DNA from: Candidatus Latescibacterota bacterium
GTDB lineage: Bacteria; Latescibacterota; UBA2968; UBA8231
Direction of reading: 5' to 3'
Assembly (NCBI GenBank): GCA_965219385.1
Contig: CBDCNM010000002.1
Location: 2,536,936-2,600,935 of the forward strand
DNA length: 64,000 nt
Shown: positions 443 through 19,070 of the stretch, piece after piece
Numbering within the stretch: position 1 is the first letter of the stretch
Layout of the letters: every line of letters begins with the position of its first letter
Notes under the pieces: model-generated
What the model was told of the DNA's origin: nothing
Seen by the model: the letters and a program-made list of their open reading frames with translations, nothing else
Databases searched by the model: none
Position numbers and translations under genes: made by a program

Positions 443-2437
443 TCAGAACACAATATGCGATACGGACTTGGAGATCAAAGCCAGGGCGATGGAACTCATG
501 CCCACCAGGCCGATGCCGCAGGAGTAACCGGCCAGCAGGATCGGAGTGTACACCCGCCAGCGCTGCTCGCCAAAGCGGCGCTGGAAGTAGAAGCGGCCCA
601 GTACGGCTCCGGCGAAGTTGAGCAGCACGAAGTGCGGCCAGGCCCCAATCCCACCGATGAAGCCGTAGAACACGGCGATGGGGGCTTTGAAGAAGGCCAG
701 AAGTCCCAAAATGCCGCAACTGCCCACAAAGCCGGTCAGGATGTAGTCCCAGCGGATGATACGGGTGATCAGCATATTGCCGGCTGCTTCGGGCAGGGTG
801 GACTTGGCCCAGAAGGTCTGCATGGTGGCGTAGAAAGGCCAGAATTTCTGCACGAAGGGGTAGCTCGACGAGGGGATGGGACCCAGCTTCCAGATGAAGG
901 ACCAGAACAGGAAGGAGCAGACGAACATGATCAGCAAGGAGACCCCGGCCAGCTTGACAATGCTGCCGAAGCGGGTGCGAGTCAGCTCCAACTGCTTGAA
1001 GGCCGCCGCTTCGAAACCCCACTGGAACAGAGGCACCGGCGCAAACCACACGGCCGCGCCCTGGTACCCGGACAGGTAGAAGGAGCCCTCGCGCAGATAG
1101 GGAAAGGAGACCCCCTGGGGACTGCCGGTCAGGCCGATCATACGGGCGCCGATATAGGAATTGATCGGCGTCCAGACAAAGCCGAAAAAGGCGCTGATCC
1201 ACCAGGGGAATTCAGGGACCAGGTAGTAGACCAGCCACACGAAACCAGCTGTGCTCACCGCCCAGATACCCAGCGCCAGAGGGAGAGGGATATCCCCGCG
1301 CCCCTCGGCAATCTCTCCCTCCTGCCGAACCCCGCGCAGCCTGTACATAGTGCTCCCTACCATCCAGAAACCCATCAGCGCCACCAGAATGGCCCCGCCG
1401 ATGGAGAAGCTCAACCAGAAGTCGAAGGAATTGGCGATCTGAGTCGGGAAGGTGGACATGCCCGGCTCCCAGGTATAGAGCACCCCCACGCGGTAGAGCA
1501 GCGGATTGGCGATCAGGTTGACAAGCATCGCCGCGGCAAAGCTGCCCACCACGATCCAGAACGGCAGCACAAAGCCGATGAGCAGGTGGCCCAGGTCCGT
1601 GCCCACGCCCATGATGCCGGCCGGAATCAGCTCCTTCATGGACACGGTCAGATCGATGAAGGGGATGGGCAGAAGGGTTATCGTCTGGGTCAGGAAGATG
1701 CCGGAGATGGTCGGGATGGCCACATAAAACAAGCCCCAGACAATGCCGATGAAGCCGCCGATGCTGAAGATCTCCCAGCGCCAGCCCTCGCGCTGCTGCG
1801 AACTTTCGGCCAGGGCCGTGGCCCCTCCGGCGTGGACCGAGGCCATTGGGTAGGGCAGGCGCTCGATATCGTTGGTGACGCGGAAGAGCACATAGCCCAG
1901 GGACAGGCTGTTGATTTTCTGCATGACGATAACCACCAGCAGCAGGACGATGGGCTTGAACCAGGCCGGGTGCAGAAAACTGCGCTGCATCAGGGCGGGC
2001 GAGTCCCGGGGTGGCACCACCCAGTCGGGGATATAGGAGTGCAAGCCGTTGGCCTGAGGCGACTGGATGAGGTACTGGTCCCAGATCAGACCACCGAAGG
2101 GGCCGCCGAAAAGGTCGGCGCCCGTGCCCAACTTGCCTCCCATCATCACCAGGCCGCCGGCCACCCAGTAGAGAATGATAACCTCCTGGGTCCGCAACCG
2201 CACGAAGGAGCGCTTGGCGATTTCTATGAGCAGAATGAGGGTCACCCACTCGGCCCCGCCGGCAATGCTCTGGCCGGTGACCAGCCCCAGGTAAATGGCC
2301 CCCGGCAACATGATGAACCCCACGAAAAGCGCTGCCCAGATCGTCCTCATATTGAAGCCGGGCTCGAATTCCAGGCCCTGGGGGATCAGGGTGATTTGTG
2401 CGGATGCCTTGGTTTTGTCTTCAGCGGAGGTCATCAT
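443..2437 (-). CDS. OPT/YSL-like (oligopeptide transporter superfamily) multi-pass membrane protein, 664 aa
   Basis: Many hydrophobic helices; N-terminal GFNMRTIWAALFVGFIMLPGAIYLGL and ERLPYP motif; last gene of the operon. Confidence 0.75.
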   Translation of the reverse strand: MMTSAEDKTKASAQITLIPQGLEFEPGFNMRTIWAALFVGFIMLPGAIYLGLVTGQSIAGGAEWVTLILLIEIAKRSFVRLRTQEVIILYWVAGGLVMMGGKLGTGADLFGGPFGGLIWDQYLIQSPQANGLHSYIPDWVVPPRDSPALMQRSFLHPAWFKPIVLLLVVIVMQKINSLSLGYVLFRVTNDIERLPYPMASVHAGGATALAESSQQREGWRWEIFSIGGFIGIVWGLFYVAIPTISGIFLTQTITLLPIPFIDLTVSMKELIPAGIMGVGTDLGHLLIGFVLPFWIVVGSFAAAMLVNLIANPLLYRVGVLYTWEPGMSTFPTQIANSFDFWLSFSIGGAILVALMGFWMVGSTMYRLRGVRQEGEIAEGRGDIPLPLALGIWAVSTAGFVWLVYYLVPEFPWWISAFFGFVWTPINSYIGARMIGLTGSPQGVSFPYLREGSFYLSGYQGAAVWFAPVPLFQWGFEAAAFKQLELTRTRFGSIVKLAGVSLLIMFVCSFLFWSFIWKLGPIPSSSYPFVQKFWPFYATMQTFWAKSTLPEAAGNMLITRIIRWDYILTGFVGSCGILGLLAFFKAPIAVFYGFIGGIGAWPHFVLLNFAGAVLGRFYFQRRFGEQRWRVYTPILLAGYSCGIGLVGMSSIALALISKSVSHIVF

Positions 2438-2450
2438 GAATAAGTTTCTT

Positions 2451-4424
2451 TTAATTCCCGTAGAGCGGGTGTCCCTGGCCGGGGAACCAGATCATGTCCA
2501 CCACGAACGAGACGCCGATGCCGGTGAAATGCCCCAGGATGATGCCGATGAAGAAGGGTTGGGCCCGGTGGTAGAGCTGGATGCCGCCGGTGCGCAGGAT
2601 GATCAATTTGCAAAGCCAGGCCAGGAAGATGGAAAAGATAATGATATTGTTCGGGTAGGAACATATCCCCACAGGCATGCCGATGGGGTGCAGGGGCCAC
2701 CACGAGAAGCGGTAGCGCATAAAGATCAAAACCGCCATGATGGCCCCGCCCGCGCCGGCGTGGCCCAGCCGCTGCCAGTCCGGTCCGGTAGTATCTATTT
2801 TGCGCAGCACCTCCACATAGGGCACCTGTGAGCCGCTGCCGAAGATCCAGCCGCCGTAGTTGTAGGCGCCATGGGAATAGCCCATGTAGAGAATGAAGCC
2901 CATGGAGACGAGGACGGCGACCAGGGCCGCCAGCAGGATGTAGAAGGTCACCGAGCGCCGGGATAGGTGCGTGCGGTCGGCGATTTTGCCGCTGTTGGCC
3001 GCGGCGACCATGAAAAAGCCCTTGAGTTCGTGGTGCCAGCCGTAGGAAAGCCCCAGGGAAACGTGGCTCGCCGCGGGCATGCCCGGCCCCCCCAGGGCAT
3101 AGCCGGCGAAGGTCTGGGCGACGATCGGGCCCCGGCAGAAGAGCAGCCCCCCTTCCATGATCACCCGAGAGATGCCGGTGTAGAGGATGATGGTGGCCAG
3201 GATGAACAGCGTCAGGGCGGGAAACGACATGCCGGAGCGCAAGAGCCAGAAGACGATGTAGAGCAGCGATAGAGAAAGACCCAGCGCAATGCCGCGGTAG
3301 GACATCAGCTCGCCGGTATCGTCGATAGCGGGGTCGTTGCGCCAGGCCTTGCGCCAGATGTCGCCCAGGTGCGACCGGGCTATCCAGAAGAGGTTGGCCA
3401 CCATCACCACCATGGCGCCGAAGGACTGCCAGCCGATGGCGGGATGGCCAAGGGTGTAGACGTCGCGGCCGGCGATTGCGTAGCCGAAGCGGTTGAATAA
3501 ACCTTCCTGGAACATGGTCAGCAGGGTGAAAAACCAGAGGCTGAAGGATACGCTCAGGTTCACGAAAAAGGTAAAGCCGGCAATGGCGAAGTTGACGGCG
3601 GGAGAAATGCCCGGAAACTCGCGGCCGATGCGCACCATGCCGGACAGGCTGGTGGGGATGGGTGGGAAGGCCGGGGTAAAGTAGGTGACCACATTCCACA
3701 TTACAATAAAGAAGGGAAGGGCGAAGCCAATCCAGAACACCCGCCGGCGCATGAAACCCGGCCAGGGAGAGTCCTCGGGAGTGGAAATCAGCTGCTGCGG
3801 AATTTCCATGAGAGGATAGGGAAGACGCTCGTACTCCACCCACTGCTTGCGCAGGGCCGCCACCAGGCAGTGGCAAAAGAAAAACACGGCCATGACCAGG
3901 CTGGTCCACCAGAACAGCGGCACCACCCAGGCACCCCAGGGAATGGACCTGCCGGCCGGGATGCCGTTGTAGAACCACTTCAGGGCCGTGAGATCGCGGG
4001 GTACCAGCCAGGTGGGGATGTGCTGCACAATCTTTTCATTCCAGGCGTTTTCCGGCGCGGCGAAGTACTGCGGCGCGGCAATCACGGCAATCAGATAGGT
4101 GGAAGTTCCCCAGGTGGGGATGGAAGCGCCGACCAGGGCCATAACGAAGATCAGGCTCAGCTCGATGGCAGTGAGGCCTTTCACCTTCCACAGAGAAACG
4201 CAGCCAGCGTTGAGCAGTGACAGCAGGGTAAAGAGGAAAACCACGCTCAGCGGCAGATAGCTGATGGCCCACTGCGAAGACTTGAGGATGAACAGGCTGT
4301 AGGGCGCGCCGACGTTGATCAGCGCCACGAGGAAGAGGCCGATCAACAGCGCCCGCAGGGGGAATTTGTGCTGTTCAGGAGGGTTTCCCACGGTTGCTTT
4401 CAGACCTTCATACAGCGCCGACAT
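2451..4424 (-). CDS. DUF6785/DUF6784-type multi-pass membrane protein, OPT-like, ~657 aa
   Basis: Start moved to ATG 4424 (MSALYEG), overlapping the stop of the upstream gene; RKQWVEYERLPYPL and WWPLHPIG motifs; many TM segments. Confidence 0.75.
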   Translation of the reverse strand: MSALYEGLKATVGNPPEQHKFPLRALLIGLFLVALINVGAPYSLFILKSSQWAISYLPLSVVFLFTLLSLLNAGCVSLWKVKGLTAIELSLIFVMALVGASIPTWGTSTYLIAVIAAPQYFAAPENAWNEKIVQHIPTWLVPRDLTALKWFYNGIPAGRSIPWGAWVVPLFWWTSLVMAVFFFCHCLVAALRKQWVEYERLPYPLMEIPQQLISTPEDSPWPGFMRRRVFWIGFALPFFIVMWNVVTYFTPAFPPIPTSLSGMVRIGREFPGISPAVNFAIAGFTFFVNLSVSFSLWFFTLLTMFQEGLFNRFGYAIAGRDVYTLGHPAIGWQSFGAMVVMVANLFWIARSHLGDIWRKAWRNDPAIDDTGELMSYRGIALGLSLSLLYIVFWLLRSGMSFPALTLFILATIILYTGISRVIMEGGLLFCRGPIVAQTFAGYALGGPGMPAASHVSLGLSYGWHHELKGFFMVAAANSGKIADRTHLSRRSVTFYILLAALVAVLVSMGFILYMGYSHGAYNYGGWIFGSGSQVPYVEVLRKIDTTGPDWQRLGHAGAGGAIMAVLIFMRYRFSWWPLHPIGMPVGICSYPNNIIIFSIFLAWLCKLIILRTGGIQLYHRAQPFFIGIILGHFTGIGVSFVVDMIWFPGQGHPLYGN

Positions 4425-7400
4425 AGTCCCGGTGGGCCCGCTGCTGGTATTCCTGGCGGATGCCGGCCGGCAGAGTGCGCCACACCAGGAAGCGCTTGCG
4501 CAGCACATTGAGGAAGTTGCGGTTCATGCGCTGCCAGGAGGCTACGTCGCCGCTGCGGCGAATCAGCAGGGTCTCGATCTTGTAGATATTGTGTTCGCCG
4601 GTGGGCACAGCCTGCAGTTGCACCTGCTGACTGATGCCCAGGTCGTAGGGCGCCAGCCAGGCCGTCATGGCAATCTCGCAGACCGGCTCGCTCCCCTCAT
4701 TGCTCACCTTGAGCTCAATGTCCCGGGCGACGAAATCGCCGACGGAGCCTTCGCCGTAGGCATCGAAGACAACCTTCAGGTAGACGTACATGCTGGGCAC
4801 CTCGGCCCCACCCACGGTAAAGGGGAAGTCGAATTTCCAGTGGTCGCCCTCCGGATCGGGGAATTGCCACTGGCGGGTGACGTCCGGGACGGCCATATTG
4901 GCGGCCATGCGGGCCGGATAGAGGGAAGACGCGTACACCGTGGCGATGACGATGAGGGTCGCCCACACCGCCGACAGCGACGAGTAGTTCACGGTGAGGC
5001 CGCCCAGCAGCCCATAGTTTAGAATGAACAGGTAGGAGATCTGGCCCAAAAGATAGCCGGCCACGGCACCGAAGGTGGCAAAGACCGTGGCCTCGGCCAG
5101 GAAGAGCAGACCGATGTGGCTGGGAGCAAGGCCCACGACGCTGTAGATGCCGATTTCGGAGGCCCGCTCGTACACCGCGCCCATCATGGTGTTGAGCACG
5201 ATCAGGGCGGCAATGAAGACGGGGATAAAGAGTTGGCCGGCACCGCTGATCCGGGTCGAGCCGATGGAACTGTAGGCGACCACCCGGTCCCCGTCGCTGA
5301 CGAAGAGGGTGAGGGCTACCCGCCTCATGAAATCCTCGATGCGCTCGACAAAAACCTCCGCCTCCTGATCGCGGGCGATGGCGATCGAGTGGATGCGGCC
5401 CTCCATTTCCATGACCCGCTCGTAGGGTAGGAAGAGCACGTTTTCCGCCGCTAAATGGTTGAGTGTTTCAATGGCGGCAGCCGCCTGAGTGCGCGGGTCC
5501 TCGGTGGCTTCACTTTGCAGTTTGGCGGCTTCGTTGACCGTATCCACGGGGGTCAGCCGCTCGCCGTCGAGGTCCACCACGCCGTTGAAGGACGCCGCAT
5601 CAAGCAGGCCGATCACGCGGTAGTCCCGGCCAAAGAGGCGGATGGAGACCGCGCCCACTGCGTCCGGGCCGATTCCCAGCAGGGCGGCTATTTTGTCGGG
5701 CAGGATGCAGACGTCGCGGTCTGCGGCGGTGAAAAAGCGGCCGGCCACCAGATGGCGGTCGATGCGGCTTACCCGGGCTTCTTCGGGTTTGAGGCCGACC
5801 AGCCCGTTGACAAAGCTCTGGCGGCTGGTCGCCGTCGTGCTGAAGTTGATGTAGGCCCATTCTGTCGGAACCTGGGCCAGGTACCAGGCCCGGGGCACGA
5901 CCTGGGCCAGGTCGGCAAAGGCGCTTTCCATGTAGTTCAGGGTGGACGCCTGCAGCCCCCGCCAGGCGCGGTCCCGCAGCAGGGCGCCCTGGTAGAGTGG
6001 CTCGGTGTCCCGGGCCAGGCGGTAAAAATCCAGGCCGGACTCGATTGAGCTGAAGGAGCAGACCGTAAAGGTGAGCAGGGTGAGGGTGAGGGCGGTCAGG
6101 CCGGTGCGGAGCTTGCGCTTGCGCAGGTTGGATATGCCCAGGACGATGGCGGTCAGGCCGGCACTGAGCCGCCCTATGTCTGTTTCGTGCATGCCCGAGG
6201 CGGCTCCCTTGCGGCGCTGCAAAAGGCTTTTGAAGTGGCCGACGACGATCCAGATCACCAGCAGCCCCAGGGCCAGAATGACGAAGGCCAGAAAAATGAC
6301 GTAGGGGGAGGTACTCAGCTTGAAAGCCGGATGCACCCAGCGCACGATAAGGAAGACGCCGATGAAAATGGCCACAAAGCCGATGATCTGGCGCCGGATT
6401 TCGGAGAAGCTGAAAAAGAAGCGCTCGCAGAAAAAGGCGAAGGGCAGCAACAGGGCAAAGTAGAAGATCACCGCCCGGACGGCATCGTTGGCGGTCGACT
6501 TGACTTCCGGGTAGATGCGGGCTTCGAGCCCCAGGGCCCGACGGGTGGCGGCCATGTACCCGGTGTAGTCCAGTCCTTCCAGGCGCTGCCGGGCTTCCAC
6601 CAGGGCCTCTCTGGTCGCCTCGTGCATGCGCTCCAGGTCTTCCAGGACAATGCCGTAGCGGCTCAGTTGCTTGATGCGAGCATCGTCGACGATCCACAGG
6701 TCGCGGGCTGCCTGGTACGAGGGTTGAAAGACCATGCCCAGTTCGACGGGATAGCCCTGGCCTTGAGCCTTTTCCATCGTCTCCATGTCTACTTCCGCCG
6801 GGGCCACAGGCCGGCGCACAAAGGCCGGATCGGCATTGCTCAGCAGGTAGCGGATGCTGGACAGGGCGCCACTGCTGCCAAGGGCGCTCTCCCCGGCCAG
6901 GATCTTCACCCGGGTGCCCGGCTCGGCGAAGACCACGCCGGCCTGAACCACCCGGTCTTCGCGGTTGCTCTGGTTCTCTATGTAGCTGTAGCCGAAGGAG
7001 CGCGGGGGCGCGTCGTTGCCACCCAGGATGGCCACCTGATCGAGGGCGGAAAGGTAGCGCGGGTCCACGACCTCCAGGAAGCTGAGGGCGCGGCACTTGA
7101 ACACCACCTGCAGCATGCGGTTTTCCCACCCGCCGTAGGGCTGGGTCGTCGGATAGGTCCCATCGCCTTCCGGTCCCAGGTCCGGGGCCGAGACAATGCG
7201 GCCGGCCTCGTCCAGCTCAAACGCCTGGATGCGATTGCTGAAGCGGTTGCGCATGATGCCGAACTTGAAGTAGCCGTGCCGGTCGCCCTTAGTGCCGGTG
7301 CGCTCGGCGATCAGGGTGCGCACCCCGCCGACGGCGTTGGGGCCAGGCTGCCGGTAGGTCACCAGAGCCCCGCCCACCGGGGCTTTGGGCACGGCAAAGT

Positions 7401-9015
7401 TGACTTCCCGGTCGAACCAGTAGACGTAGCCCTCCAGACTGTGGCCCCAGTCGCGCAGCACCAGCTTGGTGTCGTTGAAAAATTCCGGGTCGTAGACCGC
7501 CTTGAGCAGGAGGCCGCCGATAGTGCGCACCTGGGTGGTCAGGTTCTCCAAATCGACGAATTCCAGCTGATCCAGGGGTGTGTCCACCCGCTCCCGCAGC
7601 TGGTTGGGCGTGACCAGGGAGAGGCCTTCCTTGCCCACGAAGCTGACGGCTTCGCTGTCCAGGGCCAGGCGCACGGGCATGTAGTTTTTCCAGGTGCGCT
7701 TGGCGGGGGCCACCGCGTCCTGGTAGCGGGTGGAGTCCCCGAAGGTCTCCTGGTTGTAGTCGCCGAACTTGGTGGCGTAGTGGGCCATCAGGTTCTTCTG
7801 GTAGTCGTTGGTTGCCCAGGTGGAGTTATAGAAGGTCCCCAGGGTGAAAGCGGCCACGGCAGCGCTGTGGCTGGAAAGGTCCAGCCCTATGAAGAGGCGG
7901 AAGTCGAACAGGTCTTCGGGAGGTATTTTCCGGCGGAAGTAAGCGCTTTTGCGGGCGTGGCGGTAGAGAAAGTCGTTGATGCCGGCCAGGCCTTCAAAGT
8001 GTCCGGCCGTGGCCAGGAAGAGCACGGTGTAGCGGTTGCCCTGCCCCTTGAGCAGGCGGACCAGTTCCAAAAGCGCGGCGATCCCCGCGGCGCTTTCGGC
8101 CCCGGGGGCCAGGGCCGGCACCACGGAGATGGCATCGTAGTGAGCCTGCACCACGATAATCTGGTCGCTCCAGACCTGTTCCCGCTGGCGCCCGCCCAGG
8201 GGCATCTTTTCACCGTCGCCGTAGAGGAACCCGTAGATGTTGCTCGCCTCTACCTCCTCCCAGTCCATGCGGGCGCTGAGCCAGACCCGGGTTTGCCCGG
8301 ACCGGGCCAGGGGCCGCAGGATCCGGGCGGCGTCCGGCTCAAGCCAGAAGCGGGGGATGTCCACCGGTACCTGGAGGAATTTTTCGGCGGCTTCACTGCG
8401 AGTGACGCCCTTGTCGGGATAGAACAGAATGGCCCGGGCTCCCAGGGCGCGGGCATGGACGTAGTTGCTGCCGCAGTTGAAGTCCAGCAGGACGATGCTG
8501 CCGTCCAGGGGCTTGCCGTCCAGATCCTCGAGTTCGCCCCTGCCGCCGTCAATCAGGTGGCCTTCGACACCGGCCGCTGGCAGGGAAGGGGTGCGCACGT
8601 GGTTGGGCCAGAGTCCGTAGAGGGAAAACTCCCGACCGGATTCTACCAGTCGGATGCGGCCGCCCCGGTCCACGGGCACGGGCAGAGTGAAGGTCTCGCT
8701 CTTTACGTCTTCCAGGCCCAGGCGGCGAAATTCTTCCTCTACGTAGTCGGCCGCCCGCCGGGCGCCTTCGTAGCCGGTGAGGCGGGAAGGATAGGCAGTG
8801 AACTGCCGCAAGTGCTGGTAGAGGCGTTTGGAGTCGATGGAGCTCAAAGCCGCTCTGGCGCCCAGATCGGACTTGGCCGGAACTTCATCCTGCAGCAGCT
8901 CCCAGTCCATGGCCTGCTCGATCCACTGCGATACCCGGGCCGGATCGAGGACGGTCACCGAGAGCAGCATGAGGGCGGCGAGGATAAAGGTGAAAGCGCG
9001 CTTGAAGTAGGACAT
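4408..9015 (-). CDS. M28-peptidase-like (PA + M28 fold) domain fused to FtsX/MacB-type ABC permease, 1535 aa
   Basis: SRLTGYEG, PA-like insert, AHYD...APGAESAAG...FLATAGHFEGLAG; central TM block; NLRKRKLRTGLT; C-terminal LNTMMGAVYERASEIGIYSVVGLAPSHIGLLFLAE (FtsX permease signature). Confidence 0.85.
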   Translation of the reverse strand: MSYFKRAFTFILAALMLLSVTVLDPARVSQWIEQAMDWELLQDEVPAKSDLGARAALSSIDSKRLYQHLRQFTAYPSRLTGYEGARRAADYVEEEFRRLGLEDVKSETFTLPVPVDRGGRIRLVESGREFSLYGLWPNHVRTPSLPAAGVEGHLIDGGRGELEDLDGKPLDGSIVLLDFNCGSNYVHARALGARAILFYPDKGVTRSEAAEKFLQVPVDIPRFWLEPDAARILRPLARSGQTRVWLSARMDWEEVEASNIYGFLYGDGEKMPLGGRQREQVWSDQIIVVQAHYDAISVVPALAPGAESAAGIAALLELVRLLKGQGNRYTVLFLATAGHFEGLAGINDFLYRHARKSAYFRRKIPPEDLFDFRLFIGLDLSSHSAAVAAFTLGTFYNSTWATNDYQKNLMAHYATKFGDYNQETFGDSTRYQDAVAPAKRTWKNYMPVRLALDSEAVSFVGKEGLSLVTPNQLRERVDTPLDQLEFVDLENLTTQVRTIGGLLLKAVYDPEFFNDTKLVLRDWGHSLEGYVYWFDREVNFAVPKAPVGGALVTYRQPGPNAVGGVRTLIAERTGTKGDRHGYFKFGIMRNRFSNRIQAFELDEAGRIVSAPDLGPEGDGTYPTTQPYGGWENRMLQVVFKCRALSFLEVVDPRYLSALDQVAILGGNDAPPRSFGYSYIENQSNREDRVVQAGVVFAEPGTRVKILAGESALGSSGALSSIRYLLSNADPAFVRRPVAPAEVDMETMEKAQGQGYPVELGMVFQPSYQAARDLWIVDDARIKQLSRYGIVLEDLERMHEATREALVEARQRLEGLDYTGYMAATRRALGLEARIYPEVKSTANDAVRAVIFYFALLLPFAFFCERFFFSFSEIRRQIIGFVAIFIGVFLIVRWVHPAFKLSTSPYVIFLAFVILALGLLVIWIVVGHFKSLLQRRKGAASGMHETDIGRLSAGLTAIVLGISNLRKRKLRTGLTALTLTLLTFTVCSFSSIESGLDFYRLARDTEPLYQGALLRDRAWRGLQASTLNYMESAFADLAQVVPRAWYLAQVPTEWAYINFSTTATSRQSFVNGLVGLKPEEARVSRIDRHLVAGRFFTAADRDVCILPDKIAALLGIGPDAVGAVSIRLFGRDYRVIGLLDAASFNGVVDLDGERLTPVDTVNEAAKLQSEATEDPRTQAAAAIETLNHLAAENVLFLPYERVMEMEGRIHSIAIARDQEAEVFVERIEDFMRRVALTLFVSDGDRVVAYSSIGSTRISGAGQLFIPVFIAALIVLNTMMGAVYERASEIGIYSVVGLAPSHIGLLFLAEATVFATFGAVAGYLLGQISYLFILNYGLLGGLTVNYSSLSAVWATLIVIATVYASSLYPARMAANMAVPDVTRQWQFPDPEGDHWKFDFPFTVGGAEVPSMYVYLKVVFDAYGEGSVGDFVARDIELKVSNEGSEPVCEIAMTAWLAPYDLGISQQVQLQAVPTGEHNIYKIETLLIRRSGDVASWQRMNRNFLNVLRKRFLVWRTLPAGIRQEYQQRAHRDYVGAV

Positions 9016-10944: not shown

Positions 10945-10945
10945 C

Positions 10946-13561
10946 TTAGAAACCAAAGCCCCACCGATCGGCCGGCCGGCCGCCCTGGCGCTCCTCCTCG
11001 AGACCGGCAAAGATCTCCACGAAGGCGATGGTATTGCTGATATCGAGATCCTCGAGGTTGGAGAAGTTGATGTCGTTAACCTGGAAACCAATATTGGAGC
11101 TCACACTGTAGCCCTGGTACTGGACCCGGTTGGTGTACTGGGTGGTGAAGACCTTGCCGACGAAATCGTCCACGTATTCCGGCGGCAGCGGGTCGGGAAT
11201 GGGTTCGCCGTTGCGGAAGACGATGGCTTCGACGCCGACTTCCACCCGGCTCTGGGTCAGTACTGGAAAGACCGCGCTCAGGGAGAATATCTGGCTCAGC
11301 TCGTTGATTTCGAGCTGGATGGCCCGCGGCTGGGTCCGCTTGCGCCACATGCTCTTCCACCTGGGGATCAGGATGACGTTGTCGCGCACCTCGAAGGGAT
11401 AGTCGGCCTTGTTGATGATGCCGAGGAAGGTGCTGTTGTCGAGCAGGTCCTTGGCGTCGCCCCGCTGCTTGAAGTGGTCCAGGCGGAGCTTGTTCCGGAG
11501 GGAAAGGCTGCCCCGGATGTAGGTGTAGCCGAAAAAGCTCTGGTTGACCATGGTGTCCCGGGTGATCAGCGGATCGTCGAAGGGCTGCAGACCGCCCACC
11601 GTGCCGGGACGCTGCACCCACTGCAGCAGGTTGTCGGAGATGTTGTCCTTGACGAACTTGAGCATGTGGAAAACTTCGAAGCGGCCCACCCGGGGCACAT
11701 CCCGCAGGCCGCTGAGTAGCGCGTACCACATCTTGCTGCGCTCCTGGCTAGCAATGAGCCACTCGCGCGAGCGGCCTACGTTCAGGGAGAGGCCCGGATA
11801 GACCTCGCTGCCGACGTAGGCGTTGTAGCCGCGATGGCCCTTCTTGTAGGGGTAATCGGCTTCGTCGTCGTTTTCGAAGCGATCAATGACGGTGTTGTTA
11901 TTCATGTCGACGCCGAAGAGGAAGTCGGGCGGGTCCACGTAGTGCCTGAGGAAGGGCTCGTTGTAGTCGGGGGTGCGGTTGGAATTCTCGTTGAAGTCCG
12001 ACACCAGGTCGTTGTTCTCGTCCAGCCCCGGGAAGACCGCCGAGTCACCCCCTAAACCGCCGAAACGAGCCCAGTCCACGAGGCGGTCCTGGTCGTCGTT
12101 ATCGTCGATGTACTCGAACCAGTTCTGCCGCTGGTTCTCGTAGTCAACGAAGTCGTTCTGGTCGGGGATGAAGGCGCGGGTGGTGTAGTCGTGGTCCATG
12201 CTGAACACCTCGCCGTAACCGAAGAGCCGCCCTTCCCGCTTGGTGGCGTTGAGGAACCAGGCCTCAGAGGTCCTATCGTTCTTCTCGAGGTTGCTCAGCT
12301 TCTCGATATTGATATTGGGATAGCGCTGGAACTGGGTATTGCGGGCGAGTTCACCCCTCACCTCGAAGCCCAGCATGTCCTCTACCTCCAGGTCGATGCT
12401 GGCGATCTGGTTGGCCGACGGCAGGCCGTAGTCGAAGCTGACCACCCGCTGGTTGGTGTTGTCGCGGACGTTGTCCTTGGCGCGGGCCACCGGCAGGAAG
12501 ATGGGCTGGCCGTTGAGATTGGTCTGCAGATTGGAGGTGACCTCGACCTGGTAGTCGTTGGAGAGCACCAAATCGAAGCGGACCTCCTGCACCACCAGCG
12601 CATCGGGTACAGCGAAGCGGAGGAGGACGGGGGCCTCCTCAAGGGCCTCGAGGAAGCCTTCGCGCTGGCGCCCCCCCTCGATGGTCGGTTTGACAGCGGT
12701 AGACTCGCCGTCCACGATCATCAGCGCGGAGAAGAAGAGCGCGCCAGAGCCGTCGCCGGGCGAGTCGTCGGAGATGCGGATGACGATCTCGGTGACATTG
12801 CCCGAGTTCTGGCTGCTGGTCAGCAGGCCGCCCAGGGAGGCCTCGGAGAAATTGCTGCGGCTGGAGCCGAAGTGGGTATTGACCAGGGTGGCCCCCAGCT
12901 TGATGAAGTCGCCGATCTGGGCCGTGCCGCGCAGGCCGACAAGATTGGTGTAGTCGCTGCGCTGGTCCCTATCCGTACCCTGGACGGTGCGCACAGGTTC
13001 GCTGACGCGCGACACGAGAATAGTGCCTCCGTACTTGTCGGAGAGGATGTCCCACTGCACCCCGTTGAACCTCGAGCGGCTGAAGGTGAGCGGCGTCAGG
13101 GTGGTGCGGAGCTCGTCGCCTATGGTCAGGGCGGAATAGTACTGTCCTTTGGAGTCAGCCGCCACGATCAGGTTGCTGAACCAGCTGCTGAAGCGGCCGT
13201 CCTTGAATACGGTGCTGCCGAAGGCCAGCGGTTGCTCCTGGCGCCATTCGTATATGGGCCAGCCACGGGTGACCCAGTTGCCGAAGATATCGTACTGGCT
13301 TCTCCCCTCCAGTTCGGTGCTGACGTAGCGCTGGTAGGTCTCGCGGGCGTAGTTGGTGTACTTGTACCCGCCCCAGTTGTAGATGTGGTAGAGGTCCTGG
13401 GGCACGTACCACTTGCGCAGCGTGGGGACGAGCGGATCAAAGCCTTCGATGCGGATCTGTGCAGTGGCCCCCCGCTCCCTGCCCGGAGTCGCTGCAAAAG
13501 CGCTGGACACCCAACTGGCCATCGACAGCACAATAAGCGCCCACAACGCTGATTCTCGCAT
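10946..13561 (-). CDS. exported protein, probable outer-membrane beta-barrel with Ca-binding D/N-rich insert, ~871 aa
   Basis: ATG 13561 with AGGGAGGG SD; signal peptide (..SSAFA); amphipathic strand-like C-terminal third ending WGFGF; DDNDDQD/DENND/DMNNN motifs. Confidence 0.7.
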   Translation of the reverse strand: MRESALWALIVLSMASWVSSAFAATPGRERGATAQIRIEGFDPLVPTLRKWYVPQDLYHIYNWGGYKYTNYARETYQRYVSTELEGRSQYDIFGNWVTRGWPIYEWRQEQPLAFGSTVFKDGRFSSWFSNLIVAADSKGQYYSALTIGDELRTTLTPLTFSRSRFNGVQWDILSDKYGGTILVSRVSEPVRTVQGTDRDQRSDYTNLVGLRGTAQIGDFIKLGATLVNTHFGSSRSNFSEASLGGLLTSSQNSGNVTEIVIRISDDSPGDGSGALFFSALMIVDGESTAVKPTIEGGRQREGFLEALEEAPVLLRFAVPDALVVQEVRFDLVLSNDYQVEVTSNLQTNLNGQPIFLPVARAKDNVRDNTNQRVVSFDYGLPSANQIASIDLEVEDMLGFEVRGELARNTQFQRYPNINIEKLSNLEKNDRTSEAWFLNATKREGRLFGYGEVFSMDHDYTTRAFIPDQNDFVDYENQRQNWFEYIDDNDDQDRLVDWARFGGLGGDSAVFPGLDENNDLVSDFNENSNRTPDYNEPFLRHYVDPPDFLFGVDMNNNTVIDRFENDDEADYPYKKGHRGYNAYVGSEVYPGLSLNVGRSREWLIASQERSKMWYALLSGLRDVPRVGRFEVFHMLKFVKDNISDNLLQWVQRPGTVGGLQPFDDPLITRDTMVNQSFFGYTYIRGSLSLRNKLRLDHFKQRGDAKDLLDNSTFLGIINKADYPFEVRDNVILIPRWKSMWRKRTQPRAIQLEINELSQIFSLSAVFPVLTQSRVEVGVEAIVFRNGEPIPDPLPPEYVDDFVGKVFTTQYTNRVQYQGYSVSSNIGFQVNDINFSNLEDLDISNTIAFVEIFAGLEEERQGGRPADRWGFGF

Positions 13562-13599: not shown

Positions 13600-15357
13600 T
13601 CAATACGCCACGGCGATGGTGCGGAGCCGGGCGGTTTCGCCCGCATCGGTGTCCGCCACCAGCCGGGTCACGTAGAGCCCCGGCGGCACCAGTGCATCCT
13701 GGTCGTCGCGGCCGTCCCAGATCACGGCGTTGGGTCCGCTCAGGTCCCGCTGGTCGTAGAGGCGCCGCACCAGTCCGCCCCCCAAATCGTGGATGGTCAC
13801 CTCGACCTGGACCTGGCTGGTGGCCTTCAGCAGGATGTAGTTGAGTCTCAATTCGTCGTTGCGGCCGTCGCCGTTGGGCGTGATCACCGGGGAGGAGAAG
13901 GAGACCTCCGCGAACAGGCGGTCCTCTATCTTGCCCCCTACGATCAGGGTATTGGAGTCCACCGCCTCGCTGGCGTCACCGTCAATGACGCGCTGCGGGA
14001 AGGCGTCGGACTGGCTGTCGCCCACCAGGCCGCGGAACTCGGTACCCGAGACCGTCATCAGGGTTTCGAAGTGCACGGTCACTTCCCGGCCGGTGCGCTC
14101 GACGCGGTTGTCGGGGAAGAGCACCTTCAGCTGCTCGTCGGTGGCTTCCTGGGTGAAGCTGACCGCCTGGCCGTCCCCTTCCACGGCCGTGGTCCGGGCC
14201 TGGAAGGGGGTGGTGATGAAGATCGTGTCGAAGCCCCGGTTGCTTCTAGAAATGACGGACCTGAGGTGGTAGGTGAAGCTGTTGGTCTGGCCGATGAGGG
14301 CCCGGGTCGGACTGATCTCGCCCACCACCGAATCGGCGATGGCCGGTACGGTGTAGTCGAAGCTCAGCGAATCGACCACGGCCTTGTCCAGCAGCCCGTT
14401 CGAGATGAAGCGGAACTCGAACTGCACATAGCGCCTGTTGTCGGGCGAGTTCAGGCCGCTCAGCAGCTCGCCGTAGGGCGGGCTCCAGGCGCTCCAGTCG
14501 CGCCTGTTCACCCGGACCTGGCCGGCGTAGGACGGGTCGAGGGTGCGGTCGAACTGGTTCTCGGGGACCTCTTCGAACTCCCCGGGGATGCCCGTCTGTT
14601 TGAAGAAGAGCGAATCGTTGGGGACGGTGCCGGTCTTGGTGCTGAAAAGGATCTGCGCCTTGGGGTCGATGCGGGCGTGGACGGTCACCGGACCGAAGTT
14701 GGCCGGGGCGCCCAGGTCGATGACCCGGGAGACATAGTGGGCGAAAGGGGTCACGCCGATGCCGAAGACCTCCATATCGCCCATCTGGAAGTAGCGCTCC
14801 CCGGTGCTGCGCAGCTTCAAGAAGCGCACGGGCAGTGGGTCGAAGCGGATATCGAGTTCGGGTTCGCCGTGGGAGCGGTCCTGGACGATGAGGTTGTAGA
14901 TGGGCTGCCCCCTGGAGAAGTTGAGACTGTCCCCGTCGTTGGCGTAGAGTTCGTACCCGCGCAGGGAGCGCTCGTCCGAGCTGAGCACTCCGCGCCGCAG
15001 GCGGATGCGCTGCAGGACGAAGACCGCTCCCATGTCCAGGGTCAGCTCCGCGCCGTTGGTATTGGTGTAGACCCGCCATCCGGTGCGGTAGTCCCCGTCG
15101 GTGAGTTTGTCGAGGATCCTGCGGCCGTAAGGGGAGGCGAAGGCCTCCCCGCCCAGTTCGCGTACCCGGGGCATGAGGTTTTTCGTGGTGTCGGCATCGA
15201 GGGGTGCCAGACTCCCTTCGAGCTCTTCGAGAGCGGTAAAGAGGACGTCGTTACCCACCCACGGCTGGCCCGAGCCCCCGAATAGCAGGCGCTCGGCCGC
15301 CGCAACCGGGGTGGTGGCCGCCGCAGCCAGGATCAGGAGAAGAATAGATCTATACAT
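13600..15357 (-). CDS. secreted discoidin(F5/8-like) + FlgD-Ig/'TPNGDG' C-terminal domain protein, ~585 aa
   Basis: ATG 15357 after GGAGG; signal peptide; LTDGD..TGW, LDMGA, WSAWS, RRYVQF; ITPNGDGRND...WDGRDDQDALVPPGLY...IAVAY*. Confidence 0.85.
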   Translation of the reverse strand: MYRSILLLILAAAATTPVAAAERLLFGGSGQPWVGNDVLFTALEELEGSLAPLDADTTKNLMPRVRELGGEAFASPYGRRILDKLTDGDYRTGWRVYTNTNGAELTLDMGAVFVLQRIRLRRGVLSSDERSLRGYELYANDGDSLNFSRGQPIYNLIVQDRSHGEPELDIRFDPLPVRFLKLRSTGERYFQMGDMEVFGIGVTPFAHYVSRVIDLGAPANFGPVTVHARIDPKAQILFSTKTGTVPNDSLFFKQTGIPGEFEEVPENQFDRTLDPSYAGQVRVNRRDWSAWSPPYGELLSGLNSPDNRRYVQFEFRFISNGLLDKAVVDSLSFDYTVPAIADSVVGEISPTRALIGQTNSFTYHLRSVISRSNRGFDTIFITTPFQARTTAVEGDGQAVSFTQEATDEQLKVLFPDNRVERTGREVTVHFETLMTVSGTEFRGLVGDSQSDAFPQRVIDGDASEAVDSNTLIVGGKIEDRLFAEVSFSSPVITPNGDGRNDELRLNYILLKATSQVQVEVTIHDLGGGLVRRLYDQRDLSGPNAVIWDGRDDQDALVPPGLYVTRLVADTDAGETARLRTIAVAY

Positions 15358-15366: not shown

Positions 15367-15420
15367 CACTTGCGAAAAAGCTGATGACGCTCGCACTTGC
15401 GAAAAAGCTGATGACGCTCG
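15367..15420. repeat. perfect 27-bp tandem duplication
   Basis: cacttgcgaaaaagctgatgacgctcg x2, directly upstream of the SD of the 15357 gene. Confidence 0.95.
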
Positions 15421-15919
15421 CGACGCTGCACTTGCCCGATGGCACGGGTGCATGCTTTCAGTGCCTCCGTGTCCCGCTTGCCTAGAATTCGTTTGCCTTC
15501 TTCGATCTAGCTGCCCATCCGCAACAGCCGCTCTTTCTCGATCAGAGCCGTCCTCAGTACTTCATCGCTACCTGCCATGGATTCTCTCTTACCTTTCGCC
15601 GTCTTCGGTCCCGTGATCCTCTTTGGTCACTCCTATCCACCCACCCAGAGCCTCTGTGGCCTCCCTGCCCCTGAGATAGACATGTACATCCTGCGGCATA
15701 TGTGCATATAGCTTCTCTAACGAGCACGCGCTCTTCAGTTGGTGCCCCTTCCAAGCTCCAGCCGTTTCTTTCGTAGCTTTTCTTCTCCGGGTATTTGGTC
15801 TATCAGTGTCCGCCAGTGCCTCGGGGGTGTTCCGGCTTCGCCGATGAATTCAAAGCCTTCACCTGTCCAGCTAACCTGGCTTTGCTTGATCCCTTCAAAG
15901 CCAAAGTCCCGGCGCAACT

Positions 15920-16217
15920 CAAGCGTCTTCGAACTGCTGGGCGATCTCAATGCGGATAATGCGCACCGAGCCGTGGGCGAATGCCAGCTCGACCACGTGC
16001 CGCCGCCGAATTTATCCGCGTTGAGCACGGCATTGATATCCTTGCGCAAGGCGACCGGAAGGATCCGCCCGTCGGCCATCACCTCTACGGTCCCCAGGGG
16101 CAGGTCCCAGTCCTGCCAATCCCGCGCGGCATTGAACGAGATCCGCTCGCCCTGGACCGGATGCCCAGCCAGGACCATCAGGGCGACCAGGCCCTGTAAA
16201 CGGACTGGAAATTTCAT
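15920..16217 (-). pseudogene. truncated, internally deleted discoidin-FlgD family gene
   Basis: MKFPVR...ERISFNAARDWQDWDLPLGTVEV...RKDINAVLNADKFGGG matches the N-terminus of 51066/55019, then jumps frame to HVVELAF...IIRIEI and stops; followed by lower-GC sequence (~15480-15900). Confidence 0.8.
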
Positions 16218-16254
16218 GGCTTTACTTCCGTTTTTCTCGCGCTGCCCACACAGC

Positions 16255-18066
16255 TCAATAGGCCACGCCCACAATTCGCGTCCTCGTCTCCGAGCCGGTG
16301 TCCGTATCCACCGTCAGCCCCAGCAGGTAGAGTCCGGGCGGCACCAGCTGGCCGGACGCATCCCGCCCCTCCCAGGTGACCACCTGAGGGCCGTTGAGCG
16401 CATCAATCTGCTGCAACTGGTGCACGGGATTGCCCGCCAGGTCGTAGAGGATCAGTTCCACCGCTACCGGGTTGAGGGCCCGCAGCAGGATGTAGGAGAT
16501 GGCCAGATCGTCGTTGGCTCCGTCCCCGTTGGGGGTGAATACAGGTGGATCGGTCTGGAGCCCCAGGAGCAATTGGTTGCTCAGCTCGCCCTGGATCGAC
16601 AACCGGTCGCTGGCGCTGCCCGGCGAGGCGTTGCCGGGCACCACGTCCTGCCCCAGTTCGCCGCTGGCGCTGTCAAAGACCTTGCCGAAGAAAGTGGTGC
16701 CATAGACGGTGACCAGGGCGTCGAAGGCGATGCGCAGGGTCTGGCCCGAGGTCGCGACCCGGTCTCCAGTGAGCTGCACGGTCAGGCTGAGCTCGTCCTC
16801 GGCTTCCACCTCCTCAAAGGAGATGGCCACCCCGTCCAGTTCGACGGAGCGGAGCGCGGCCCGGAAAGGAGTCTGGATCTGCACGCGGTCAAAGCCCGGG
16901 TTGTCGGGACCGAACTCGGAGCGGATGTAGTAATCAAAGGTATGGGGCTGGCCCAGGACCACGGTGGCCGGACTGATCTCGGATACGGCCTCGGCGGCCA
17001 GAGCGGGGCTCGAGTGCTCAAAGGAGAAGGACTCCACGGCCGCACCCAGGCGGGCGTCCTGCGAGGAAAAGAAAAGGCGGAACTGGACGTACTGCCGGTT
17101 GCCCGGGGAGAGGAAATCGCCATTGAAATCCTCGTACGGGGCCGACCAGGGGCTCCACTCCTCCAAATTGTCCACGATATCGCCCTTGTCCGCTTGGAGC
17201 AGGTCTTCATATTCCTCCGCCGCTTCGGGCGAGCCCACGGGCAAGATCGGCTCCTGAGCCCGCCCCTCCCCCACAAAGAGATCGGACTTGCGGTAATAGA
17301 TGAGGGGATCGGGCACCGAACCCGAGCGGGTCTGCAGGACCACATGGGTCAGCGAGTCCAGGCGGACCGGCAGCTGGATGCGGCCGAAATTGGCCGGCTC
17401 CCCCAGGTCGATGACTTCGGAGGTGAATTGGCCAGTGGGCGCAAAACCATCCCCGAAGACTTCGGCCTCGATCAGGCTGAACTCCTGGGTGGAGCGGCTT
17501 ATGAGTCGAATGAAGCGCACAAACTGCAGCGGGATCTCCACGTCGATCTCGGGCTCGTCCTGCTCCAGGTTGGTCTTCACCAGATTGGTGTAGGCAACCG
17601 GGCGACCGTTGCGCAACTGGGCGGGGTCGCCGTCGTGGACGAAGAGTTCGTAGGCGCGCAGAAAGGCATCCTCGCCGCCCACGAAGCGAATGCGGTTGAT
17701 CGGCAGGATAGCGCCCAGATCAATCACCATGGAGGTGCCGTCGGGGCGGCGCTCCCGGGTCACCCGCCAGGAGGTTTCGAGGTTGTTGTCGATCAGCAGG
17801 AGGGTGAGGTTCTCCCGCGCCTGCGGCGATGAGATCTCCCCGCCGCGCCGCAGGATATCGGACAGGGCATTGCTGGCCGGATTCACAGTGGCCGGGATGA
17901 GCACATTGTCCGCGGTGGTCACTCCGTCGAGTGACCCAATGGACTCCCAGTTCTGGTCGCCGGTCCCCACCTTCCAGATATCGATGCCTGCCGCCGGTCC
18001 GCTCCAGGCGCACAGCAGGGCGGCCAGTCCCAGCAGGGTCTTGCCCGCTTTAGAAGATTTATTCAT
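16255..18066 (-). CDS. secreted discoidin(F5/8-like) + FlgD-Ig/'TPNGDG' C-terminal domain protein, 603 aa
   Basis: Signal peptide; LIDNNLETSW, IDLGA, WSPWS, RQYVQF; FTPNGDGAND...WEGRDASGQLVPPGLY...IVGVAY*; clear paralog of 13600-15357. Confidence 0.88.
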   Translation of the reverse strand: MNKSSKAGKTLLGLAALLCAWSGPAAGIDIWKVGTGDQNWESIGSLDGVTTADNVLIPATVNPASNALSDILRRGGEISSPQARENLTLLLIDNNLETSWRVTRERRPDGTSMVIDLGAILPINRIRFVGGEDAFLRAYELFVHDGDPAQLRNGRPVAYTNLVKTNLEQDEPEIDVEIPLQFVRFIRLISRSTQEFSLIEAEVFGDGFAPTGQFTSEVIDLGEPANFGRIQLPVRLDSLTHVVLQTRSGSVPDPLIYYRKSDLFVGEGRAQEPILPVGSPEAAEEYEDLLQADKGDIVDNLEEWSPWSAPYEDFNGDFLSPGNRQYVQFRLFFSSQDARLGAAVESFSFEHSSPALAAEAVSEISPATVVLGQPHTFDYYIRSEFGPDNPGFDRVQIQTPFRAALRSVELDGVAISFEEVEAEDELSLTVQLTGDRVATSGQTLRIAFDALVTVYGTTFFGKVFDSASGELGQDVVPGNASPGSASDRLSIQGELSNQLLLGLQTDPPVFTPNGDGANDDLAISYILLRALNPVAVELILYDLAGNPVHQLQQIDALNGPQVVTWEGRDASGQLVPPGLYLLGLTVDTDTGSETRTRIVGVAY

Positions 18067-18087
18067 CAGAAGTTATAATATAAGCAA

Positions 18088-18119
18088 AGAGGGGAGGGGA
18101 TTCCAATCCCCTCCCCTCT
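18088..18119 (-). terminator. intrinsic terminator / stabilising hairpin after the first operon gene
   Basis: Perfect inverted repeat agaggggaggggatt-cc-aatcccctcccctct followed on the minus strand by TTTGCTTATATT. Confidence 0.75.
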
Positions 18120-18167
18120 GCTGAACTTGCTTTGACAATCGGTCCTGTCAGCCCATATTGCGGGCGC

Positions 18168-19070
18168 TTAGAGCTCTTCATCCACCAGGGCTTTGAGCTG
18201 GCCCCAGGAGGTGGCCTCGACAGCCGTGACGGACTCATCAACCGGGTTGAGGAAGACGTCGGGCATGCCGCCCGTGTTCATGAACTGCTCGGCCATGCTG
18301 TACTGGCCCTGCCAGAACATGTTGGTCTCCTCGCCCGATTCGCCGTTGACATTGGTGCCCGGATCCGCATCGTCGACCGAGATAGACATGCCAATGGTCG
18401 ACTCGGGGGTCAGGATCCACTCGGTGCTGGCTTCGGGACCGCTGTTGACGGCGATCGGATCGAAGAGAATGGCGCTGAACTCGTAGTAGTACTCCTCGCC
18501 CTCACTAGCCTCCTCGGTTTGGACGAAGTCGCCCGAGTGGGTCCACCAGAAGTCCCGGTTGTCCAACCCGAAGTGGCCCAGCGCGGACTCGTACATCTGT
18601 ATCCGCGAGAACTCCTCGGAGAAGGTCAGGCACATCTGGTAGGCCGGCTGCAGATCATCTTCGGGGGGCGCCGAGACCGGACCACCGCCCCCGTTGTCCG
18701 GATCGAAGTGCACTTCAACGGCGTCGTCCCGGAACAAACAGCCGGGATTCTTGTCCACGATCAGCACGTCGTCGTGCACGTGCACCATGGCGTTGATCGT
18801 GTTGTTGCTCGGCTGCCAGCCGATGATCATGTCGATGAAGAGATCATCGGCGTCATCGGCCCCACCGATGAGGGCGTTCATGTCATCGATGGTGATCTCG
18901 AAGCTGCGGTCCACCCAGGCCCAGTCAGCGTTGTCAGCGTCGATGGTGGGCTGATTGCCGGCCGGGATGCCCACGGCAAAGTAGAGCGGCACTTCGGCCG
19001 GTTCCTGAGCCAGAGAGCTACCGACGGCTACGAGCATCAGACCCAGCATAAGGACCAGTATTTTGCGCAT
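18168..19070 (-). CDS. exported CBM9/DOMON-like sugar-binding protein with C-terminal SWGxxK tail, 300 aa
   Basis: AAGGAGG SD; signal peptide; PTIDAD..DW, VHVHDD, DAVEVHFDPD, YYYEFS, IGMSISVDDAD; ends TAVEATSWGQLKALVDEEL. Confidence 0.8.
   Translation of the reverse strand: MRKILVLMLGLMLVAVGSSLAQEPAEVPLYFAVGIPAGNQPTIDADNADWAWVDRSFEITIDDMNALIGGADDADDLFIDMIIGWQPSNNTINAMVHVHDDVLIVDKNPGCLFRDDAVEVHFDPDNGGGGPVSAPPEDDLQPAYQMCLTFSEEFSRIQMYESALGHFGLDNRDFWWTHSGDFVQTEEASEGEEYYYEFSAILFDPIAVNSGPEASTEWILTPESTIGMSISVDDADPGTNVNGESGEETNMFWQGQYSMAEQFMNTGGMPDVFLNPVDESVTAVEATSWGQLKALVDEEL

Follow-up and report, generated by a model that had tools for sequence, protein, structure and literature searches.

We analysed a 64,000-nucleotide stretch of DNA (the window; G000:C2:2536936-2600935) from a Candidatus Latescibacterota genome of 5.81 Mb, assembled in two contigs and 94% complete. 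Nine genes and one gene relic, all on the minus strand, occupy window positions 443..19070 with mostly short gaps or overlaps, just as the first-pass annotation of this DNA had described. In gene order the encoded proteins have lengths of 300, 603, ~586, 871, ~340, 263, 1535, ~657 and 664 amino acids (aa). Starting at the second discoidin gene and ending with the OPT-like gene, the intergenic distances are 38 nucleotides (nt), an overlap, 33 nt, 93 nt, an overlap and 13 nt. The cluster is composed of two separable conserved modules and is not one indivisible machine. The outer module contains an outer-membrane barrel, the CBM32-fold (discoidin) proteins, a CBM9-like protein, a SurA-like protein and a lipoprotein, and the inner module contains an M28-pseudopeptidase/FtsX permease, a DUF6785 protein and an OPT-family protein. 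At this locus, a satellite outer module and the inner core share a single run of genes.

The two halves differ in distribution. Among 121 genomes grouped in families (f1, f2, f3 and others), the barrel was found in 72 and the discoidin family in 70, and both are missing from all 44 genomes of families f2, f3 and f4; the genome searches used cut-offs of E<=1e-40 for discoidin proteins and E<=1e-75 for the ATPase subfamily discussed below. A separate barrel profile detected 0/5 in these families and f8 versus 5/5 positive controls. The gene order recurs in relatives, as had been anticipated. In five orthologous loci, the full order is kept in G097 and G014 and is broken after the lipoprotein gene in G011, G115 and G101. 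One complete outside-to-cytoplasm machine, as originally envisaged, is therefore not sustained, given the different distributions of the halves and the break of the lipoprotein|M28-FtsX junction in three of the five loci. A total of 79 loci around OPT-like genes were compared (<=10 kb on each side, many cut by contig ends). The order M28-DUF6785-OPT was found in 37, with the lipoprotein in 32 of these and a barrel upstream in 27. Thirty more OPT loci form a second type with the order lipoprotein-SurA-OPT, and TPR and ExbB/ExbD genes lie upstream in the two that were read. Linkage is also strong within the window genome: a barrel gene is found no more than 9 kb from 25 of the 29 discoidin genes, and a discoidin gene no more than 9 kb from 17 of the 20 barrel genes. 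Of 24 DUF6785 genes, 13 are placed within 10 kb of either, compared with 7% for random places.

Discoidin protein 1 (603 aa; 16255..18066, minus strand) possesses a predicted CBM32 fold and a type IX secretion system (T9SS)-type C-terminal domain (CHU_C/FlgD-like) that ends in Tyr. It matches PF13585 at 29.3 bits (cut-off 27), and PF00754 stays below its cut-off. Discoidin protein 2 (~586 aa; 13600..15357, minus strand) was modelled as an all-beta protein with a predicted local distance difference test (pLDDT) score of 92, and consists of a CBM32-like domain, further beta-sandwich domains and a T9SS-type C-terminal domain. Residues 34-180 of the model resemble CBM32 modules (Z 14.7, root-mean-square deviation (rmsd) 2.3, 123 residues aligned), and the last ~105 residues resemble the PorU C-terminal domain (Z 12.7, rmsd 2.4, 99 aligned). 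The scores for a type B tail are divided: PF13585 is over the cut-off in protein 1 and under it in protein 2, and TIGR04131 gives 15 bits versus the 35 required. The expansion of discoidin paralogues noticed earlier is strong, with 29 members in the genome, 28 of them with a terminal Tyr and 24 with the motif PN.DG. A further 60 weaker matches, many with a type-A-like tail, have the PN.DG motif in the tail of none. A SprA homologue of 2028-2036 aa is encoded ~25 kb from the window (L236:10487-16573; C2 ~2.51 Mb), with PF14349 over the cut-off. GldM (TIGR03517) was not found in the genome, and no control genome gave a match either. Against 22 PF00593 matches over the cut-off, a single clear canonical TonB is encoded in the genome. 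Three more long discoidin paralogues occur elsewhere in the window (43340-55019 and 61983-63005) together with two broken copies and without a barrel within 30 kb; an ankyrin gene is located between two of the three.

The 871-aa protein (10946..13561, minus strand) had been proposed to be an exported outer-membrane barrel, and the structure model bears this out, as it matches barrels alone. The protein has no Pfam, NCBIfam or PDB-sequence match, and its family alignment found none among PDB sequences. The model was built from 42 sequences (pLDDT 78; predicted template modelling score, pTM, 0.75) and displays, by hand count, 24 long strands joined by short and long connections in turn, preceded by a short N-terminal segment of ~70 residues. 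A beta-sandwich (~258-378) is inserted after strand 7 on the long-loop side; its profile comparison with the discoidin proteins gave no match (probability 0.4%). On the same side, after strand 11, a loop of 120 residues (456-575) contains 31% Asp+Asn and is among the best-conserved regions, which suggests calcium binding. Structure searches yield many sorts of barrel without singling out a family: the best Z is 12.4 at an rmsd of 11.6, and Foldseek TM-scores are <=0.27. Fimbrial ushers are 24-strand barrels that carry an inserted plug and periplasmic domains for chaperone binding; FimD/PapC are among the many barrels matched (Z 8.8-10.0, rmsd 6.7-7.3), with no usher Pfam match. The terminal Phe emphasised before was rejected as a conserved signal: the last strand ends at ~855, where most of the paralogues stop. 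A role as T9SS translocon was also rejected; SprA is a separate protein and is present in 5/5 genomes tested, three of which are without the barrel. The genome encodes 20 barrel paralogues, and the Atlas lists related unnamed barrel clusters labelled Gemmatimonadota and Latescibacterota.

Two small genes complete the outer module downstream of the barrel. The SurA-N-like putative lipoprotein (9934..10956, minus strand, start approximate) reaches 24.9 bits for PF13624, below the cut-off, and no clear peptidyl-prolyl isomerase (PPIase) domain was found in it. The 263-aa putative lipoprotein (9109..9900, minus strand) has seven paralogues, some of which are fused to a weak TonB_C-like domain (E 0.0026; E 0.046).

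Four paralogous loci of this genome carry a ~1080-aa TPR protein, and we refer to loci of this kind as master loci. Within the ~20 kb read, three of the four carry ExbB/ExbD genes and three a DUF4159 protein; two have PorV/PorP-like small barrels, and one has a lipoprotein that weakly matches TonB_C. Families f10 and f14 repeat the order discoidin, small barrel, 2-3 large barrels, TPR, ExbB, ExbD, ExbD, (DUF4159), lipoprotein, and barrels are linked to this motor by operon in these loci. The PorV/PorP-like genes directly follow the discoidin gene in master loci (PF11751 at E 0.002 only), and no PorP/SprF gene was found directly downstream of the discoidin gene in the window locus. A DUF4159 query gave matches in 0/4 barrel-less genomes and in the one barrel-bearing genome searched (1/1). 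In G043 (L177-L179), the barrel matches are arrayed in tandem pairs or triplets, together with three tandem DUF4159 genes.

The inner module starts with a giant type VII ATP-binding cassette (ABC) permease of 1535 aa (4408..9015, minus strand). Its domains are, in order, an N-terminal anchor, a PA/M28 pseudo-peptidase, a domain without assignment (~520-840), three transmembrane (TM) helices, a TM-MacB periplasmic domain-FtsX unit and a C-terminal domain, with eight predicted TM helices altogether. The middle domain (520-840) had no Atlas match above 0.79. PF02687 (43.2 bits) and PF12704 (29.2 bits) are over their cut-offs, and the complete MacB/FtsX unit of one TM helix, periplasmic domain and three TM helices is present. 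In the coupling helix between TM2 and TM3, residues E1283, R1284, I1288, G1295 and L1296 are found in 60/60 homologues; the first three-TM half of the protein retains E864-R865 of this helix only. The PA and M28 folds are indicated by PF04389 (37.9 bits) and by matches to the aminopeptidase structures 6hc6 and 2ek8. Active M28 peptidases have a canonical two-zinc ligand pattern, which extends beyond the aligned part. In the head of the giant permease, His339 (60/60) and, for the most part, Phe stand in place of the catalytic Glu-Glu pair; 33/60 retain the first His and the final His is absent, while D294, E307, D379, R474, D478 and D482 are invariant in the 60 homologues. This denotes a remodelled pocket and not decay. 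The proposed M28-like/FtsX fusion is confirmed at the level of its domains, with a head that is non-catalytic by residue comparison.

The next gene encodes a DUF6785+DUF6784 polytopic membrane protein of ~657 aa (2451..4424, minus strand, likely start 4424; PF20581 373.7 bits, PF20580 88.1 bits), and the last gene a 664-aa membrane protein related to the OPT/YSL family (443..2437, minus strand). The two had been described as twin OPT-fold proteins, which is correct at the family level: 29 of 68 aligned members of the OPT-like family match PF03169 (best E 1.7e-20), and the window protein alone gives no match. Neither this protein nor its alignment matched PDB sequences. A total of 903 relatives were found among cluster representatives at E<=0.001, including proteins of Bathyarchaeia and Thermoprotei, and the archaeal relatives are named OPT/YSL by NCBI. 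The closest named relatives are mostly titled Candidatus Latescibacterota, and some carry Gemmatimonadota or Handelsmanbacteria titles of metagenome-assembled genomes. The DUF6785+DUF6784 protein aligns end to end with the OPT-like family (HHalign 98.9%, 578 columns, E 1.6e-17), and by this profile comparison DUF6785 is a remote OPT homologue. One frame of G015 (L324:2403-9242, 2280 aa) is a true M28-FtsX-DUF6785 fusion; it is the one among six long frames checked, and the other five are frame extensions. On one archaeal contig, the OPT gene is immediately preceded by the C-terminal part (438 aa) of an M28-FtsX homologue. A metagenome scan with the archaeal OPT protein gave two contigs, too short to look for an ATPase. 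The window genome encodes two ATPases, one small FtsX protein, three M28-FtsX proteins, three OPT-like proteins and 24 near-full-length DUF6785 proteins. No barrel was found within the ~20 kb read at the other two M28-FtsX/OPT loci. The second M28-FtsX/OPT pair is followed by a 336-aa gene without known function and a stand-alone PqqD/RRE-like gene (L150:7049-8414; PF05402 E 3e-10), and the 336-aa gene precedes a small FtsX and an ATPase gene in four distant relatives.

Searches with Pfam and NCBIfam confirmed that no ABC ATPase, TonB-dependent receptor or SusD is encoded inside the cluster. Nor was an ABC ATPase found in the 79 loci around OPT-like genes (<=10 kb per side, many truncated by contig ends), although the same profile finds 61 open reading frames (ORFs) in the window genome itself. 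The absence reported earlier holds for the cluster and not for the genome, where a dedicated conserved subfamily is encoded elsewhere. Two LolD/MacB-type ATPases, related to each other and both bearing the same kind of C-terminal extension, were found at C2:2315604, after a 249-aa FtsX protein, and at C2:3976343, without an adjoining permease. The subfamily is present in 103/121 genomes and in 0/14 genomes negative for DUF6785, and the four DUF6785-positive genomes without it are 60-89% complete. It occurs in 102 of 107 genomes positive for M28-FtsX; thirteen genomes lack both, five incomplete ones lack the ATPase only and one lacks the permease only. Note that the negative genomes come nearly all from one family and count as one event, not fourteen. 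The small FtsX gene adjoins the ATPase gene in 29/30 family loci. We also inspected 20 ATPase regions of other genomes, picked for distant families or nearness to the permease. Four of them (G043, G045, G050, G054) have the order M28-FtsX, OPT-like, ~300-aa gene, small FtsX, ATPase, with a ~125-aa ORF resembling a PqqD-like protein intervening in the two that were printed. Two more (G029, G040) have the order ATPase, DUF6785, M28-FtsX, OPT-like. In the other 14 regions no link to the permease genes was found. By this context, a cognate LolD/MacB-type ATPase of the giant permease exists in trans. An ATPase-free FtsX system was accordingly rejected, as a conserved ATPase is co-distributed with the permease and shares its operon in 6/20 regions. 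A conserved ATPase elsewhere was among the refuting conditions named in the first-pass annotation, and it tells against the ATPase-free idea; the gene set as such is still not assigned to a known system. Other orphan ATPases, LptB-like and SufC-like by their neighbours and motifs, were set aside.

Comparison with known systems places the inner module near the type VII ABC transporters MacB, LolCDE and FtsEX, with which it shares the FtsX/MacB_PCD domains, the four-TM unit with its coupling helix and a LolD/MacB-type ATPase. The giant and the small FtsX proteins would make an apparent heterodimeric permease like LolC/LolE. It differs in the 1535-aa permease with its PA/M28 pseudo-peptidase head and extra three-TM half, in the partnership, once as a fusion, with OPT-family proteins, and in an ATPase often encoded in trans. 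To the OPT/YSL family (barley YS1; described in the excerpted text of PMC9691689) the module is linked by PF03169 homology at the family level and by the adjacency of two related proteins, such as a dimer would require; different here are the tie to an ABC motor, the dozens of DUF6785 paralogues per genome and the lack of a direct sequence match to any solved structure. Few ATPase-coupled core copies facing many scattered membrane subunits are also known from group II energy-coupling factor (ECF) transporters, although the folds here are those of type VII ABC and OPT proteins and no sequence relationship is expected.

The outer module shares with SusC/SusD polysaccharide utilization loci and the Ton system the repeated units of barrel and binding protein, a shared ExbB/ExbD motor in trans and transporter genes nearby. 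SusC is a 22-strand barrel with a plug of ~150 residues. The present barrel has 24 predicted strands and matches neither PF00593, whose cut-off is passed at 22 other places of the genome, nor PF07715, and is not a TonB-dependent receptor; its binding proteins are beta-sandwich proteins with a T9SS-type tail instead of TPR lipoproteins, and no glycoside hydrolases were found in the loci. The T9SS type B systems with PorP/SprF (PMC12618676, in the part available) have in common with our loci the CHU_C-type domain, a SprA gene in the genome and, in master loci, the PorV/PorP-like gene after the discoidin gene. They differ by the large barrel that lies downstream here and in most satellites, and by TIGR04131, which is below its cut-off here. 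The vWA-headed transducers beside TPR-tolQ-tolR-tolR genes, as outlined in the accessible portion of PMC12204202, share the TPR protein, an ExbB/TolQ-like protein, two ExbD/TolR-like proteins and a membrane-anchored arm with a non-TonB head, which is DUF4159 in our case and linked to large barrels; Latescibacterota have 0 occurrences in that portion. The passages of PMC4454575 available mention porins, ABC, TRAP and TonB systems and not this gene set, and those of PMC12993501 contain no matches for TonB, outer membrane, DUF or FlgD. No description was found in the literature searched for DUF6785, for the Latescibacter outer membrane or T9SS, or for the inner-module set, though supplements may hold annotations. 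The gene set is thus real, conserved and without description in that literature, in agreement with the earlier view of an uncharacterised envelope gene set with conserved order.

We propose that the cluster joins modules of an import route that would draw its energy from two sources in trans, an ExbB/ExbD motor and a dedicated ABC ATPase. The genes, the two distributions, the operon links to these motors and the one fusion are observations and the folds are predictions, while export path, docking, gating, direction and substrate belong to the proposal. The discoidin proteins would exit through the SprA translocon by their type-B-like tails and stay docked as lids on cognate barrels, with a SusD-like job. 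A few master loci would supply ExbB-ExbD-ExbD, the TPR scaffold and a DUF4159-headed arm that could open each of the 20 barrels. Within the inner membrane, the giant permease, the small FtsX and an ATPase dimer may constitute a LolCDE-like mechanotransducer beside the OPT-like core subunit, in which the dead-peptidase head might bind cargo or a partner. The ~24 scattered DUF6785 proteins could then be exchangeable substrate-specific subunits of the shared core, for which group II ECF transporters offer an analogy. Uptake is favoured over export or anchoring, the two directions suggested at first, and the substrate, judged from the folds, would most likely be carbohydrate-derived. Nutrient import through a shared ATP-driven core that serves many exchangeable DUF6785 subunits is the leading possibility, slightly short of an even chance. 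The entire scheme, an undescribed import pathway with two new energy couplings in which T9SS-secreted lectin-like lids cover barrels of a new 24-strand family opened by ExbBD/DUF4159 and one type VII ABC mechanotransducer with its pseudo-peptidase head drives dozens of exchangeable OPT-fold DUF6785 proteins in an ECF-like manner, is rather unlikely.

Several observations weigh against import. The barrel is without a plug of the TonB-receptor type, and the CBM32 fold is also found in domains that do not bind sugars (DOC, IFT25). No glycoside hydrolase was found in the cluster; among its unlabelled neighbours, of which 104/138 were scanned (E<=1e-12), a single BNR repeat protein is the one exception. 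No enrichment of sugar-catabolic enzymes was seen around the modules, with p 0.15-0.29 for enolase-type, Gfo/Idh/MocA and PhyH enzymes. According to the available sections of PMC10094684, type VII ABC permeases act as mechanotransducers or extractors, and import is not a role known for them. G043 breaks the pairing of barrel and discoidin genes, with 19 barrel matches and without a discoidin gene at E<=1e-40. Moreover, the 44 genomes of f2, f3 and f4 keep the inner module without a detectable barrel or discoidin gene. Family f10, in turn, has barrels in 13/13 genomes, and DUF6785, M28-FtsX and the ATPase in 0/13. This reciprocal absence indicates that neither module needs the other, with the note that it concerns whole families, not independent events.

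The same absence is what would be expected if the modules were functionally independent and came to share loci, in f1 and a few other families, by way of co-regulation or the history of the genomes, with no relay from outside to cytoplasm. The broken lipoprotein|M28 junction in G011, G115 and G101, the two other M28-FtsX/OPT loci without a nearby barrel and the archaeal M28-FtsX-like/OPT pair conform to this explanation, yet two locus types and many satellite loci repeat the pairing, beyond one ancestral juxtaposition, and we regard independence as improbable. Somewhat stronger is the idea that the outer module is a T9SS display or anchoring arm, where large barrels hold neighbouring type-B-tailed adhesins or lectins for host or particle contact, ExbBD moves or releases them, and the inner module serves the arm by extraction or maturation of an envelope component. 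The tails with an invariant PN.DG..D motif and terminal Tyr, the CHU_C match over the cut-off, the PorU-like C-terminal fold and the presence of SprA are consistent with this. So is the small PorV/PorP-like barrel directly after the discoidin gene in master loci, a layout known for type B substrates with their shuttles from the available part of PMC12618676. Enrichment of FG-GAP/ASPIC genes is seen around the outer module (13/29 vs 5.7%, with four seeds coming from those loci), and type VII ABCs such as LolCDE do extract cargo (PMC10094684, available sections). However, known shuttles are ~300-aa barrels, not pores of 870-950 aa, the f10 genomes have several stand-alone barrels and mostly one discoidin gene, and the strong local linkage with OPT-family proteins, a solved member of which (YS1) is an importer (PMC9691689, excerpted text), is left unexplained. 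A display arm of this kind seems unlikely.

The giant permease could also serve in biogenesis or quality control of DUF6785/OPT multipass proteins or of lipoproteins, with its M28 head in the role known from nicalin and without a part in transport cycles. Weak nicalin matches (E 0.0013 and 0.0023 over ~53 residues), the few core copies facing many DUF6785 genes and their identical distribution would fit, but matches this short are expected of any M28-fold protein, and fusion to DUF6785 suits a lasting partnership better than a transient chaperone. We consider this very unlikely.

With regard to the import route, an ABC motor tied to subunits of a secondary-transporter fold would, if true, blur the divide between primary and secondary transporters, and a barrel family other than TonB receptors, tied to ExbBD as well as to T9SS-type cargo, would represent a parallel to the SusCD system of Bacteroidota that arose independently. 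Latescibacterota give a large genome share to these families (20 barrels, 29 discoidin proteins and 24 DUF6785 proteins here). DUF6785/DUF6784 gain a fold family, the missing ATPase can be named, and the cluster is split into two testable units.

The sigma70-like promoter mentioned in the first-pass annotation (19270..19299, minus strand) matches the consensus at 11/12 positions with an 18-nt spacer. The number of such sites is not above chance (5 in 20 kb vs 3.9 +/- 2.0 in shuffled sequences). A hairpin resembling an intrinsic terminator, with a stem of 14 bp and a T-tail (18088..18119, minus strand), is located between the first and second genes and makes a single uniform transcript doubtful; the overall count of hairpins does not exceed that of shuffled sequence either. 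Contigs that contain the stretch come from four metatranscriptome runs of a single study, which are recorded as sponge metagenomes; strand, level and co-transcription cannot be derived from them, and uncovered parts prove nothing. The first gene is spanned unbroken in 4/4 runs (19207 to 18113-18125), the downstream genes are covered by short near-identical pieces only, and 19257-19900 is almost bare. The relic (15735..16217, minus strand) retains the N-terminal ~50 residues of a third discoidin protein followed by unrelated sequence. Its full counterpart is a ~765-aa discoidin gene, intact at the same position in G011, G097, G014 and G115.

The first gene (18168..19070, minus strand) encodes the 300-aa CBM9-like exported protein. 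The CBM9 label is justified at the family level, where 4/17 aligned members match PF06452, and not by the window protein itself, which has no match; the alignment found none among PDB sequences. Its C-terminal tail [TS]WGx[IVLM]K is shared by 44 ORFs of the genome and looks like a sorting signal. Tandem ~310-aa CBM9-like paralogues with near-identical tails occur, e.g., at C2:4105847-4116337 and C2:4197771-4203914. Elsewhere in the window, at 55903-61252, three UxuA-like genes (mannonate dehydratase family) accompany an FGE-sulfatase-like protein with a TWG-type tail. Divergent from the cluster, at 19539-21287 on the plus strand, lies a gene for a SurA-N-like protein with a halocyanin-like C-terminal domain (TIGR03102 E 7.5e-7, below the cut-off). 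It is followed at 22208-40342 by two SurA/PPIase paralogues along with a series of FG-GAP/ASPIC-UnbV and TPR genes, and a similar pair of SurA and TPR-rich genes flanks the orthologous loci in G097, G014 and G115.

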